A stretch of 63,999 bases of DNA, filler included, from Planctomycetota bacterium (GTDB taxonomy: Bacteria > Planctomycetota > Planctomycetia > JALXBF01), in the NCBI GenBank assembly GCA_026991575.1. It is 5 parts of 5 records of this genome, joined end to end, with 100 filler letters (N's around TTAATTAATTAA, not from the genome) between each part and the next. Parts side by side here need not be neighbours in the genome. Positions count along the whole stretch, not along the records: positions 55,854 to 62,222 come from JALXBF010000067.1; 4 more parts are not named here. One strand, written 5' to 3'. The notes below the pieces were generated by a model, which was not told the DNA's origin, made no database searches, and worked only from the letters and a program-made list of their open reading frames with translations. The position numbers were made by a program, and so were the translations under genes. Each line of letters opens with the position of its first letter. Position 1 is the first letter of the stretch. Positions 24,336 through 62,322 of the stretch are shown one piece after another.

Positions 24336-24435
24336 NNNNNNNNNNNNNNNNNNNNNNNNNNNNNNNNNNNNNNNNNNNNTTAATTAATTAANNNNNNNNN
24401 NNNNNNNNNNNNNNNNNNNNNNNNNNNNNNNNNNN
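24336..24435. other. Artificial contig-joining spacer
   Basis: 44 N + TTAATTAATTAA (stops in all frames) + 44 N. Confidence 0.99.
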
Positions 24436-48729: not shown

Positions 48730-48829
48730 NNNNNNNNNNNNNNNNNNNNNNNNNNNNNNNNNNNNNNNNNNNNTTAATTAATTAANNNNNNNNNNNNNNN
48801 NNNNNNNNNNNNNNNNNNNNNNNNNNNNN
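48730..48829. other. Artificial contig-joining spacer
   Basis: 44 N + TTAATTAATTAA + 44 N. Confidence 0.99.
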
Positions 48830-55753: not shown

Positions 55754-55853
55754 NNNNNNNNNNNNNNNNNNNNNNNNNNNNNNNNNNNNNNNNNNNNTTA
55801 ATTAATTAANNNNNNNNNNNNNNNNNNNNNNNNNNNNNNNNNNNNNNNNNNNN
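55754..55853. other. Artificial contig-joining spacer
   Basis: 44 N + TTAATTAATTAA + 44 N. Confidence 0.99.
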
Positions 55854-57553: not shown

Positions 57554-59392
57554 TCAGCGTACCCGGAACACCGGATAGCGGCCAAGCTCACCGCGGATCA
57601 GGCGCGCCAGCAGTCGAGCTTGCAGCTCCAACAGGCCGCGGTAGGTGACCTGATAGCCAAATAGCGGATGGGTCACCAGCTGGTTCATCCGCTGCTCGTA
57701 CGCCCGGAAGAATGCTGAACGGCCGGCCTGGTTCAGATTCACGCCGGAGCCAGCACGCACAAAGTGCGTCGGCTTGACCATCCCCCGATTGATCGCCGTA
57801 TACACGACCGCGTCGGCAATCACCGGCCGAAACGGCTCCATCAGGTCCAGAGCCAGCGCGGGACGACGCGGCCGCATCTGGTGATAGAAGCCGAGATATG
57901 GGTCCAGCCCAACGAGCTGACAGACGATCGTCAGGTCTTTACACAACACCGAGTATGCCAGCGAAAGCAGCGCATTGACCGGGTCGCGTGGCGGCCTGCG
58001 GTTCCGCTTGGCAAAATCGAACCGCCACACGTCCTGTGTGTCACCGTTGCCACCGCTGCCCTGTTCTTCCTCGTCGAGTGGTTCCTTGCCCCGCTTGATC
58101 AGCCCATCGAACGCTTGGAAGTAAAAGCGCCCCGCAGCTCCCTCGATGCCCCTCAGCGTGTCAATGTCCCTGGCAGCCCTCGCATCGCGAGCCAGTTGCT
58201 TCAGGCTTGCCAGCACCTGCTGAGGCGGCTCGATATGGTTGCGCTGCAGAATCACCCGCTGATTCTCGATCTTGCCGGCAACGATCTCCCGCGCAAACTC
58301 CAGGCAGAACCAGCCGCGCTCTGCCATCACGTGCTGCTCATGGCGTAAGAGAGCGTTCGTGGCGTCGAGGCCGTGTAGTAGACCACAGAACCAGCCGCCG
58401 TACGTGAAGAAGGCCACCGGAATCTGCTCGTTGACCAGCGTCCGTAGCGCCTGGGTCGTGCACTGCACATTGCCAAAAATCGCCACGTGCGACAGGTCCT
58501 TGCACAGGAACTCTTGCCTGTCGCCTTCCGGAAGCTGCACGATGAGTCGCCGGCCGCTAACGCGAACGTAGGCCCCCTGGGTGTTCAAGTACAGCGGCTT
58601 GCCGCGTGTGTCCCGGATCGACAGCGTCCGCACCGGGACGTTATCCGGCAGACGACCATCGTACTGCTGTTGCTCCAGTTCCGCAAACAGCATGCGTTGC
58701 CGTGTCGTTCCCGGCCGGGTCTTCACCGCGGCCGCCCAGGTTTCGTCCGGCAGGCAGACCGGCGCCAGCGAGCAGCCGTCGCACTTGGGACTGTTGAAAA
58801 GCGGCGGCGGAATGCGGCGCGCCTCGGCCAGCTCCTTAGCCTTGGCCAGCTCTGCCAGAAACCAGCGCTCCTGCTCCGGCCCCACACGCACGCGCACACG
58901 CTGCTTGCTGGCACAGTAGTAGACGATCGCCTCGTCGCACTCGTAGCCGTTGTCTCTCAGAATCAGCACCTGGCCGATCGCCTGCACCAGCTCTGGCGGC
59001 CACGGTTCGAGCCGCCCATCCTCCAGCTCCCGCGGCCTGCCCCTCTTGTAGTCGACCGGCACGACCTTACCGTTCTCTGCCTCGACCAGATCCAGCACCG
59101 CTACCACCCCGAGGCGGTCACTGCCCAGGTGGACCGAACGCGCTTTCACCGGCAGACCGCCTGAGATCTGTTCCGGATCGGGCAGCTCTTGGTGGTCCAC
59201 ATGCACGCGGCGATGCTTGCTTTCACCGTCCACAGTGTACTGGTTCGGGATGAATGCCTGGTCGACGTGCTCCAGGTAAAACAGCCGCGGACAGTAAACG
59301 AACTTCCGCAGCATGCTTAACGGCAGATAGTCCTCTGGCGTAGCGGTCTGCTCAGGAGTCGGACGATCTGCTGGGTGCACGTCGTTGGCCAT
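57554..59392 (-). CDS. cas1: Cas4-Cas1 fusion, type I-G style, apparently intact
   Basis: Cas4: YCPRLFY, DLVE, VDYKRG, KCDGCSLAPVC (four Fe-S Cys). Cas1: IFGNVQ.TTQA, GIEG.A.R.YF, NRRPPRDPVNALLSLAYS, GFYH, ALDLMEPFRP. Confidence 0.96.
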   Translation of the reverse strand: MANDVHPADRPTPEQTATPEDYLPLSMLRKFVYCPRLFYLEHVDQAFIPNQYTVDGESKHRRVHVDHQELPDPEQISGGLPVKARSVHLGSDRLGVVAVLDLVEAENGKVVPVDYKRGRPRELEDGRLEPWPPELVQAIGQVLILRDNGYECDEAIVYYCASKQRVRVRVGPEQERWFLAELAKAKELAEARRIPPPLFNSPKCDGCSLAPVCLPDETWAAAVKTRPGTTRQRMLFAELEQQQYDGRLPDNVPVRTLSIRDTRGKPLYLNTQGAYVRVSGRRLIVQLPEGDRQEFLCKDLSHVAIFGNVQCTTQALRTLVNEQIPVAFFTYGGWFCGLLHGLDATNALLRHEQHVMAERGWFCLEFAREIVAGKIENQRVILQRNHIEPPQQVLASLKQLARDARAARDIDTLRGIEGAAGRFYFQAFDGLIKRGKEPLDEEEQGSGGNGDTQDVWRFDFAKRNRRPPRDPVNALLSLAYSVLCKDLTIVCQLVGLDPYLGFYHQMRPRRPALALDLMEPFRPVIADAVVYTAINRGMVKPTHFVRAGSGVNLNQAGRSAFFRAYEQRMNQLVTHPLFGYQVTYRGLLELQARLLARLIRGELGRYPVFRVR

Positions 59393-59410
59393 AGTGCTAC
59401 TCCGCGAACC

Positions 59411-59704
59411 TCACACCACATAACTCGGCGGGTCGATCTTGTGAAACGGACGCCCGACCGTGCGGATGTCACGCTCAGCCAGTGAGCTGCTCGGACCGAA
59501 GTTGAGGAAAAGAACCTGATCCTCGTCGTGCTTGATGACCGCGGCCAGCTCAGTCATGCAGGCGATGAGTTCGCATTCGTCGAGGTGGCATTCGAAGACG
59601 GAGTATTGGATGCGGCGCCCGAAGTTCTCCATGATGCGGGCGACCTTACGGAGCCGTTTGTCGTTGCAGATGTCGTAGGCTACGATCCAGACGGTTCTCC
59701 CCAT
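59411..59704 (-). CDS. cas2: CRISPR-associated Cas2
   Basis: IVAYDICNDKRLRKV, FGRRIQYSVFEC, IKHDEDQV; GAGGTG RBS before ATG 59704. Confidence 0.96.
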   Translation of the reverse strand: MGRTVWIVAYDICNDKRLRKVARIMENFGRRIQYSVFECHLDECELIACMTELAAVIKHDEDQVLFLNFGPSSSLAERDIRTVGRPFHKIDPPSYVV

Positions 59705-59889
59705 GCCGGTCACCTCACTTGGTAGCGACCGACCCGCCGCAACACCAGCATAACAAAATAGGCAATCTGGGTGGAATAGCAAATCTTGGGTCCTGTGAGG
59801 GATGGGTGCTCCGCCTGGCCCTTGTACAATTGGTCACGCGGCGGCATGTTCACCGTTGCCTTGTCGGGTGCCAGTCCAGGGGGTGGTCG

Positions 59890-61251
59890 ATGACAGGTGA
59901 GACCGCAGCCGGTTCCGAGGCGCTGGCGTACACGCCGGCGCAGATTGTGGAGTACTTGGATCGGTACATCGTTGGGCAGGAGCAAGCGAAGCGCGCCGTC
60001 GCGCTTGCGATTCGCAACCGCTGGCGCCGACTCCAGCTCGACGAGCGCCAGCGCCAGGAGATTACCCCGAAGAACATCTTGCTCATCGGGCCCACCGGCG
60101 TGGGCAAGACGGAGATCGCTCGCCGGCTGGCACAGCTGCTGCGGGCCCCGTTCGTCAAGGTGGAAGCTACCAAGTTCACCGAAGTCGGCTACGTAGGCCG
60201 GGACGTGGAGAGCATGGTACGTGACCTGGTCAAGGTTGCGATCGCGCTGGTGCGGGAGGAGCAGGAGGCGATCGTGCGGGCGGAGGCTGAAGCCAGGGCG
60301 GAGGCACGGCTAGTGGACGTGCTGCTGAGCTCCGGGGCAGTGTCTGAGCTGACGGCCACCGACCCGGCCGCCAGAGGCGGCGCCCGGGAGCGGCTTCGCG
60401 ACATGCTCCGCCGCGGCGTCCTCGACAACCGCCGGATCACGCTAGAGTTGCCGGGCCGCAAGGTGGGGGTCCGCGTCGTGCCGCTGCCGGGCATGGAGCA
60501 ACTGGAGCAGGATCTGGAGCGGATGTTCCGTGATCTGTTGCCGAAGCCACCTCAGACGCGAGAGATGACGGTGGCCGAGGCGAGAAAGATCTTCATCGAC
60601 CAGGAGCTGGAGAAGCTGCTCGACGAAGACAAGATCACTCAGGAAGCGCTGCGCAGGGCCGAGGAATCGGGCATCATCTTCGTGGACGAGCTTGACAAGA
60701 TCTGTGCCACGGGCACCCGCGTCGGGGGCGACGTGTCGCGCGAGGGGGTACAACGGGATCTGCTGCCGATTATTGAGGGGACGACCGTCTCGACCCGCTA
60801 CGGCTCCATCCGCACGGACTTCATCCTCTTCATCGGCGCAGGCGCCTTCCACATGGCCCGCCCCTCGGACCTGATGCCCGAACTGCAGGGGCGGTTCCCA
60901 ATTCGCGTCGAGCTTCATCCGCTGAAGAAGGAGGATTTCCTGCGTATCTTGAAGGAGCCGGAAAGCTCGATCATCCGCCAGTATCAGGCACTGCTTCGCA
61001 CCGAGGGGGTCGAGCTTACGTTCCGCGACGATGCCCTCGAAGCGATTGCAGACATTGCTTATCGCGTAAACCGGCAGACACAGGACATCGGAGCACGGCG
61101 GCTTCATACGATTGTTGAGCGGGTGTTGGAGGACGTTAGCTTTGATGCGCCGGCACTGAGCGGTCAGACCATTGTGGTCGACCGGGACTATGTGCTCGAG
61201 CGGCTGAAAGACGTCGTCACCGACGAGGATCTTGCACGCTATGTCCTTTAG
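59890..61251 (+). CDS. hslU: ATP-dependent protease ATPase subunit HslU (ClpY)
   Basis: [35 protein letters not shown] pore loop, [34 protein letters not shown]-terminus. Confidence 0.97.
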
Positions 61252-61813
61252 GTCCGGTTCAACGGCGGCATTCTATGGCGGCAGCCGGCACGGTACGACC
61301 GTCTTGTCCGTTCGCCGTGGTTCGAAGGTGGCCATTGGAGCGGACGGCCAGGTTACCTATGGCGATACCGTACTGAAGGCGAACGCTACCAAGATCCGCC
61401 GCCTCGCCGACGGCGAAGTGCTGGTCGGCTTTGCCGGTGCGACCGCAGACGCGTTTGCGTTGTTGGAACGGTTCGAGGCCAAACTGCGCGCTCATCCGGG
61501 CAATATCGTGCGCGCTGCCGTCGAGCTGGCCAAGGACTGGCGCACGGACCGGGCGTTGCGGCAGTTGCAAGCGATCCTGGCGGTGGTCGACGCACGGACC
61601 AGCCTGCTGGTCACGGGCGTGGGCGACGTGCTGGAGCCTAGTGACGGTATCATCGGCATCGGTTCAGGGGGACCGGCCGCGACAGCGGCCGCCCGAGCCC
61701 TGTTACGGCACACGGATCTGGACGCGGCCACCATCGTGCGCGAGGCACTCCGAATTGCGGCCGAGATCGACGTCTACACCAACGATGCCATCACAGTCGA
61801 AGAGCTGCCGTGA
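61241..61813 (+). CDS. hslV: ATP-dependent protease peptidase subunit HslV (ClpQ) with short propeptide
   Basis: [51 protein letters not shown] overlaps the hslU 3' end. Confidence 0.96.
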
Positions 61814-62222
61814 GCACCAGCGACCGAGGCCACCGTCTACCGCTGAACACCACGCTGTGGTCAGTTACCGGCGCTGCCTGCACGCTGGGTGAGCTGCTGG
61901 CGCACGATCGAACGCTGATCGTCTTGCTCCGCCACTTGAACTGAATTGCTTGCCAGGATCACCTGGTTCAGGTGAACGAGGCGTACGGCGAATTCGCCAG
62001 ACGCCGTGCCGGTGTGCTGGCGGTGGGCTTCGAACCTCCCGAACATCTTGCTGCGTGGCAGCCGATCAGGCCGTTGGACTTTCCCGTAGTGGTCGATCCG
62101 GACAGAGCGCTCTACCGCTCGGTCGGCGCTGGCCGTGTCCCACTGCGGCGGCTCCTGACGCCACGGGTGATCCGATACTACTGGCGGCTGTATCGGCGCT
62201 GGGGCATGCCGCGCAAGCCGCG
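61810..62222 (+). CDS. Probable selenoprotein: AhpC/TSA-like (SelL/PRXL2-related) redoxin with UxxC motif (3' truncated)
   Basis: GTG overlaps the hslV TGA; frame reads ...[13 protein letters not shown](61942)[10 protein letters not shown]...VLAVGFE...[21 protein letters not shown]-like hairpin follows. Confidence 0.82.
61959..61975 (+). promoter_or_regulatory. Candidate bacterial SECIS hairpin
   Basis: TCACCTG-GTT-CAGGTGA: 7-bp stem, loop starting GU, 21 nt after the UGA. Confidence 0.65.
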
Positions 62223-62322
62223 NNNNNNNNNNNNNNNNNNNNNNNNNNNNNNNNNNNNNNNNNNNNTTAATTAATTAANNNNNNNNNNNNNNNNNNNNNN
62301 NNNNNNNNNNNNNNNNNNNNNN
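62223..62322. other. Artificial contig-joining spacer
   Basis: 44 N + TTAATTAATTAA + 44 N. Confidence 0.99.

Follow-up and report, generated by a model that had tools for sequence, protein, structure and literature searches.

A SelL-related redoxin gene with a probable selenocysteine codon and SECIS hairpin beside hslUV in a Planctomycetota genome

The hslU and hslV genes of a Planctomycetota bacterium (GenBank assembly GCA_026991575.1) are followed by a gene for a thioredoxin-fold protein, termed here the redoxin, whose frame is crossed by a single TGA codon. The locus was analyzed within a stretch of 63,999 nucleotides (nt), filler included, hereafter the window, which strings together contigs from a single metagenome-assembled genome (G000; 191 contigs, 97.8% complete) and is not continuous DNA. 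It occupies the 3' end of contig C67, with window position 61810 corresponding to C67:5957. The genes and features of the locus are listed below; selenocysteine (Sec) and the selenocysteine insertion sequence (SECIS) are predictions.

59890..61251, plus strand: hslU, the AAA+ ATPase of HslUV (Pfam AAA_2 1.3e-32, AAA 2.7e-17, ClpB_D2-small)
61241..61813, plus strand: hslV, the proteasome-like peptidase (Pfam Proteasome 2e-21; start ATG 61241, stop TGA 61811-61813)
61810..62222, plus strand: SelL-related UxxC redoxin, residues 1-137 of 186 (translation, Pfam, NF040769 3e-23, contig overlap)
61810..61813, plus strand: GTGA overlap, in which the redoxin GTG at 61810-61812 shares two bases with the hslV stop TGA (sequence)
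61942..61944, plus strand: predicted Sec codon UGA, residue 45, first position of U-x-x-C (alignment to a cysteine (Cys) column, relatives with TGA)
61951-61953, plus strand: Cys48, codon TGC, the partner Cys of UxxC (sequence)
61959..61975, plus strand: predicted bacterial SECIS hairpin, 7-bp stem 61959-61965/61969-61975, loop GUU 61966-61968

The hslU gene ends with TAG at 61249-61251 and overlaps the hslV start by 11 nt; the hslV product is 55-79% identical to its counterparts in relatives. The open redoxin frame has no start codon before the GTG at 61810, and the next one after it, a TTG at codon 39, is 6 codons ahead of the TGA, which leaves the GTG as the sole plausible start. Its overlap with the hslV stop makes translational coupling possible. 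The frame contains one in-frame TGA only, in the context LLRHLN-U-IACQDHL, and later reads VLAVGF. An earlier reading of this locus, made from the sequence alone and called here the sequence-only reading, had described the overlap of the GTG with the hslV stop, the single TGA at 61942-61944, the hairpin, its loop and its 21-nt spacing, and all of these descriptions are accurate. It had placed the end of the gene at 62222, which turned out to be the end of the contig. C67 ends with the same 127 nt with which contig C35 begins (the two contigs are not neighbours in the window), and the frame runs on through C35:128-275 to a stop codon at C35:273-275, giving a full length of 186 amino acids (aa). 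The database protein P0002 covers the part after the TGA, and its C-terminus agrees with the join of C67 and C35; the gene order past the join agrees with that in the sister genus G001.

The TGA falls on a conserved Cys/Sec column. In an alignment of 27 full-length Cys homologues the column of residue 45 is Cys in every sequence (27/27), and R41, C45, C48 and D96 are invariant; the homologues were drawn from the first 39 matches, with the omission of eight short proteins (118-154 aa), three long ones (356-396 aa) and, by oversight, P0039. The TGA is thus not on a non-Cys column, an outcome that the sequence-only reading had held to be damaging to its proposal of a selenoprotein. A search of 41 related genomes (E <= 1e-5) gave 17 matching places in 16 other genomes. 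Exactly one in-frame TGA is present in 13 of these places (12 genomes), each time at RHLx-TGA-xxC, and the protein is conserved on both sides of it (32-54% protein identity). The remaining matches are three with RH(L/S)GCxFC at the site of the TGA and one distant 635-aa protein. Of 251 genomes sampled evenly across the phylum, five had a match, and this sample added two more TGA forms, G096 and G178. The second position of the UxxC motif is Cys in all 14 Sec forms, namely the 13 loci of relatives and the window copy.

These observations bear on the simplest alternative, that the TGA is a true stop and the locus either a pseudogene or the source of a 44-residue peptide and a truncated protein starting from GTG 61972. 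Standard calling of open reading frames (ORFs) does give exactly those two pieces, as the ORF listing splits the gene into 61810-61944 (44 aa) and 61972-62274, and the database entries P0002 and P0003 begin after the TGA. Yet a TGA that recurs at a single column in 13 loci (12 other genomes), between conserved stretches of protein and with Cys in its place in all 27 Cys forms, is not expected of a stop codon, and a product starting at 61972 would be without the whole redox motif and strand 1. We consider a true stop extremely improbable. A use of TGA as a sense codon throughout the genome was also considered and is ruled out: an alternative genetic code was rejected because hslV itself ends in TGA.

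The hairpin downstream of the TGA agrees with the published model of the bacterial SECIS (bSECIS), as given in PMC13188914. That model has a loop of 3-9 nt, a stem of 4-16 bp, a G within the first two loop positions, a distance of 16-37 nt from the UGA to the loop, and a minimum free energy (MFE) of <= -7.5 kcal/mol. The window hairpin has the loop GUU, a stem of 7 bp, a loop that begins 21 nt past the UGA, and -8.3 kcal/mol when folded alone. A 49-nt stretch folds at -18.8 kcal/mol (z = -2.80), and one of 200 shuffles was equally good. The MFE fold of the 63 nt after the TGA has another structure for the window copy; the conserved helix is recovered in the 49-nt fold and in the alignment fold of the window copy and its relatives. 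RNAalifold independently predicts the same helix from the 14 Sec forms. Across these forms 92.9% of the helix cells are paired, versus 37-50% in controls with the pairing partner slid. Two of the seven stem pairs covary: alignment pair 24-40 is CG in 7 sequences, GC in 3, UA in 1 and UG in 1, while pair 30-34 is CG in 7 and GC in 5. The covariation score was reached in 0 of 500 shuffles. The agreement with the bSECIS model and the two covarying pairs uphold the earlier suggestion that this 7-bp hairpin is a SECIS. They also touch the alternative of a truncated protein, since its start codon GTG 61972 would lie within the 3' arm of the SECIS stem.

The machinery for Sec insertion is present. 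The selD, selB, selA and tRNA-Sec genes of G000 form a compact cluster (C184:25019-29790), and all of them are above their cut-offs; the tRNA-Sec, with the anticodon tca, scores 73.3 bits and is called tRNA-SeC (tca) by ARAGORN. The sequence-only reading had asked for precisely these four genes, and would have been abandoned had none been there. Among the 41 relatives selA is above the cut-off in 20, including all 13 genomes with a TGA form, and the TGA form is found in 0 of the 21 genomes without selA. As kin are not independent, we treat this co-occurrence as a check of a necessary condition and attach no statistic to it. As a side observation, selD of G000 has one in-frame TGA and is a selenoprotein gene too.

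The TGA is also kept in assemblies of other sequencing runs. Positions 61516-62222 are matched without any difference by a Logan contig of run X1 (14,963 nt), a run that may itself be the source sample. Run X2 belongs to another study; its 192-nt contig spans 61788-61979 and shows 8 differences, of which none affects the TGA. Six of the seven differences listed are synonymous in the redoxin frame (codons read by eye), and such a preponderance of synonymous changes upstream of the TGA is a further argument against a true stop. In a contig of run X4 the redoxin is outside the coverage. The X1, X2 and X4 data are not raw reads but assembled contigs, in which minor variants at the TGA would not show. 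The contigs of X1 and X2 both read TGA, and not the TGC or TGT that would have pointed to an assembly error.

Several domain and fold comparisons place the product. The best Pfam match of the redoxin fragment is AhpC-TSA (1.7e-9), followed by AhpC-TSA_2 and Redoxin; AhpC-TSA_2 (PF13911) reaches 27.2 bits on the copy cut by the contig end, above its gathering threshold of 27. The NCBIfam family NF040769 (SelL-related redox protein) is the best family for 14 of the 14 Sec forms, and its cut-off is 120 bits; full-length relatives score 155-163 bits, and the G001 ortholog, at 54% identity, scores 159.2 bits. The family motif R-H/Y-x-x-[C/U]-x-x-C is present at the start of helix 1 as RHLNUIAC. An AlphaFold2 (AF2) model of the G001 ortholog (predicted local distance difference test (pLDDT) 93.8, predicted template modelling score (pTM) 0.90) has as its best Protein Data Bank (PDB) match the human prostamide/prostaglandin F (PGF) synthase PRXL2B, with template modelling (TM) scores of 0.74/0.81, and then BcpB, PrxQ, ResA and AhpE. 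Pfam, NF040769 and the fold match thus agree with the assignment to AhpC/TSA_2 and to PRXL2/SelL-related proteins made in the sequence-only reading.

Some observations weigh against the assignment of the UGA and of the gene. Three of the 14 Sec forms are without the consensus helix; the helix of G002 has only 4 bp, and in G033a and G007 it is shifted by 4 nt and has the loop AGUU. The hairpin lies within the conserved codons of HL[VG][QE]V, and the protein could explain part of its conservation. Residues 1-137 of the window copy score 82.3 bits with NF040769 (profile positions 9-126 of 173), and P0002, the C-terminal 132 aa, scores 86.3 bits (profile 50-172), both below the cut-off of 120. The depth of the X2 contig is only 4.3, and no RNA run is among the sequencing runs listed for the locus. 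To our knowledge, no bacterial member of the family has a known substrate or reductant. The low scores of the two window pieces probably arise because the gene is split over two contigs. The two covarying pairs argue against the protein as the whole cause of the hairpin conservation. Substitutions at these pairs change the encoded residues (Q/E and the one that follows V), and the three Cys forms with RH(L/S)GCxFC do not retain HL[VG][QE]V; both observations fit a constraint of the RNA on the codons. In our opinion the locus would be a clean example of a SECIS constraining the codons of HL[VG][QE]V.

Taken with these reservations, the UGA at 61942 is very probably a Sec codon and the gene a selenoprotein gene, coding for a SelL-related/PRXL2 oxidoreductase with Sec45-x-x-Cys48. 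The Sec/Cys pair, the orthologs with TGA, the covarying SECIS hairpin and the Sec machinery all speak for the UxxC selenoenzyme that the sequence-only reading had proposed.

The redoxin could in principle be a peroxiredoxin (Prx)-type peroxidase, that is, a thiol peroxidase with Sec as a helper, and not a thioredoxin-like oxidoreductase. AhpC-TSA is its best Pfam match, and the leading fold matches include BcpB and PrxQ. A profile alignment to the Aeropyrum BCP puts Cys48 at the peroxidatic Cys and aligns the Arg of DPxR with the conserved Prx Arg. In the same alignment Sec45 is on the Thr/Ser of PxxxTxxC and Arg41 on its Pro; the redoxin thus has Arg41 and Sec45 where the Prx motif has Pro and Thr, which argues against a peroxidase. 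The closest full-length structure, PRXL2B, is a CxxC enzyme and not a Prx. In a thioredoxin-type CxxC the N-terminal Cys is the attacking one, and Sec takes this position in the redoxin. A peroxidase seems to us rather unlikely, and the predicted site is a thioredoxin-type U-x-x-C on a peroxiredoxin scaffold.

For the oxidoreductase we propose the following mechanism. The UGA at 61942 would be read as Sec, with the in-gene hairpin at 61959-61975 acting as the SECIS, which would bring SelB and its Sec-tRNA(Sec) to a ribosome that has paused at this codon. The gene would be the last cistron of an hslU-hslV-redoxin unit, presumably co-transcribed. The product would be a 186-residue thioredoxin-fold oxidoreductase, probably cytoplasmic, as no signal peptide was seen by eye. 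Sec45, positioned at the N-terminus of helix 1, would use its selenolate to attack an oxidised substrate, which could be a disulfide, a sulfenic acid or a peroxide/endoperoxide. The adduct would be resolved by Cys48 to give a selenenylsulfide, itself to be reduced by a reductant of the thioredoxin type. In all likelihood the redoxin works as a selenol/thiol redox pair; the catalytic cycle, substrate and reductant given here are those that we infer.

The sequence-only reading had further seen in the locus a combined redox and proteolysis unit not described before. The arrangements in the four genomes of the order are as follows (< and > give the direction of genes).

G000: hslU> hslV> redoxin> <DUF1573 Rrf2> RluA>
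G001 (sister genus): hslU, hslV, DUF1573, redoxin, Rrf2, RluA, all on one strand
G002 and G003 (sister family): <PAPS-reductase redoxin> <DUF1573 hslV> hslU>

A dedicated HslUV partner, for example one that acts on oxidised substrates by reducing them ahead of their degradation or that maintains HslU/HslV in the reduced state, would be in line with the gene order in G000, where hslU, hslV and the redoxin share a strand, the start of each of the latter two overlapping the end of the preceding gene, and the next gene is a convergent DUF1573 gene with a terminator-like site. The redoxin is 1.6-2.2 kb from hslV in G001, G002 and G003 (hslV search and tblastn on longer stretches), and it stands within that distance of hslV in 4/4 genomes of the order; because the arrangements differ among the four genomes, this proximity has survived rearrangement. 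Against a partnership, the four genomes are close kin, so a shared neighbourhood is expected by descent. The DUF1573 gene separates hslV from the redoxin in G001, and G002 and G003 have the redoxin on the upstream side, where it converges with DUF1573 and lies outside the hslVU transcription unit.

The distribution beyond the order points in the same direction. The redoxin and hslV are near each other in 4 of the 16 genomes with both, all four belonging to one order with three arrangements, and in 0 of the 12 genomes with both genes outside it. There the distance between the two genes is 19 kb in G004 and about 2 Mb in both G016 and G028; in the other nine they lie on separate contigs. The overlap of the redoxin start with the hslV stop was found in G000 only, among the related genomes examined. 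A tblastn search for hslV and hslU in 18 redoxin loci with 1.5-kb flanks gave a match at the locus of the window only, with flanks too short to reach these genes in G001-G003. No hslV was mentioned among the matches listed in a literature search on HslV with selenocysteine or peroxiredoxin-like proteins.

We consider a dedicated partner of HslUV improbable. Marginally less probable still is that the redoxin is functionally tied to HslUV across the order, with the proximity kept through at least two rearrangements and the gene serving as a translationally coupled third cistron in G000. If true, an ATP-dependent protease would have a redox accessory that depends on selenium, of which there is no description among the literature matches listed. 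The shared hslUV neighbourhood may most simply be an inherited gene order, and the hslUV-redoxin order of G000 is best read as a lineage-specific accident of gene order that would give co-expression, not as a dedicated system. The undescribed unit is therefore not retained, as the overlap with hslV is confined to G000 and linkage is absent from the 12 genomes outside the order; nor does the hslU-hslV-redoxin synteny, which was expected to recur in relatives, extend across lineages beyond the one order. We regard the hslUV linkage as a small lead and not a system.

Two features of the hslUV genes were noted independently. In a comparison of the window with the loci L035-L059, the order hslU-hslV is found in G000 and G001, and hslV-hslU in 22 of 23 other related loci, with no hslU seen at one locus; within one family, the two genes of the operon seem to have swapped places. 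An 18-residue leader, without an adjacent start codon, stands ahead of the catalytic Thr-Thr of HslV (window 61241-61300). In relatives a few to a dozen residues precede the TT (e.g. ...KWRSTTIL), and a propeptide of HslV seems to be the rule in the class.

The other genes next to the redoxin are listed by locus.

C35:532-1590 (minus strand), L060:4090-5136, L061:4783-6060 and L062:3109-4191: DUF1573 orthologs with the motif CGC, beside the redoxin in 4/4 genomes of the order
L061:6677-7381 (G002) and L062:1632-2405 (G003): gene with a 3'-phosphoadenosine 5'-phosphosulfate (PAPS) reductase domain, divergent from the redoxin, in the sister family
C35:1996-3158 and L060:1366-2581: Rrf2-family regulator and RluA-type pseudouridine synthase, following redoxin and DUF1573 in each of the family's two genomes

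PAPS reductases are thioredoxin-dependent. By analogy, the redoxin could be the reductant of the PAPS reductase in G002 and G003; the PAPS-reductase gene was not seen next to the redoxin in G000 or G001. The DUF1573 gene is convergent with the redoxin in three of the four genomes of the order, and its product is a Cys form, unlike the DUF1573 selenoproteins with UGC reviewed in PMC13188914. The DUF1573 protein has a signal-peptide-like N-terminus (by eye). It was considered as a redox partner of the redoxin and is an unlikely one, given this signal-like segment and its lack in the redoxin.

The following lines complete the features of the window.

57554-59782, minus strand: Cas4-Cas1 fusion (611 aa) and Cas2, directly upstream of hslU on the opposite strand
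24336-24435, 48730-48829, 55754-55853 and 62223-62322: spacers at contig joins, N runs around TTAATTAATTAA
63075-63084: run of 10 N within contig C83, not a join

One search for proteins homologous to the redoxin gave two matches, both of them 5'-truncated calls. A search of genome contigs and metagenome contigs with P0002 revealed no related locus and no second contiguous copy of the gene. Of 150 representatives, 19 are listed with 103-148 aa and with first residues that align to query residues 46-69, a pattern as expected of unrecognised Sec forms. Standard gene callers miss or halve the redoxin gene, and the value of the locus is mainly for annotation.

Among known systems, the redoxin has in common with NF040769 the R-H-x-x-C/U-x-x-C motif and a length of ~180 aa. 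PRXL2B (PDB 9us9, 9usa) is its best full-length profile match (16-177) and its best fold match, and has a CxxC site, Cys44/Cys47 according to the title of the entry. It differs in being a eukaryotic Cys form with 22-24% identity, and the fold comparison used the modelled G001 ortholog. A vent bacterium is unlikely to contain the endoperoxide on which PRXL2B acts. The BCP/PrxQ peroxiredoxins are similar in fold, in the Cys at the peroxidatic position and in the retained conserved Arg. A typical peroxiredoxin has PxxxTxxC, in contrast to the redoxin with Arg41 for Pro and Sec45 for Thr.

Closer to the redoxin are the Prx-like UxxC selenoproteins, with which it shares the Pfam family and the UxxC motif, the comparison being by family and motif and not by alignment. 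The GOS survey reported 225 Sec and 2,740 Cys forms of 'Prx-like 1' (pfam00578, UxxC; PMC2398784 Table 2). A 2026 review has 'Prx-like thiol:disulfide oxidoreductase' (PF00578; UxxC, UxxU) as 'predicted with high confidence' (PMC13188914 Table 1), and also lists the cd02970 'peroxiredoxin-like family protein' (UxxS) and DUF1573 (UGC); its main text does not name NF040769. The cd02970 family as listed there differs from the redoxin in having UxxS instead of UxxC. The name 'SelL-related redox protein' was not found in the literature searched.

Selenoprotein L (SelL), after which NF040769 is named, is itself described as a Prx-like protein (PMC2398784) and occurs in fish, invertebrates and marine bacteria. 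The redoxin resembles it in its Prx-like thioredoxin fold and in a Sec within a redox motif of xx spacing (PMC2398784, PMC2397514). SelL proper has UxxU and a diselenide according to PMC2397514, whereas the second position of the redoxin is Cys (TGC), which could give a selenenylsulfide at most. The redoxin is no new kind of selenoprotein, because Prx-like UxxC forms have been catalogued since the 2000s; it adds one more Sec form to them and, with its covarying SECIS, would be a well-supported addition to the SelL-related/PRXL2 family.

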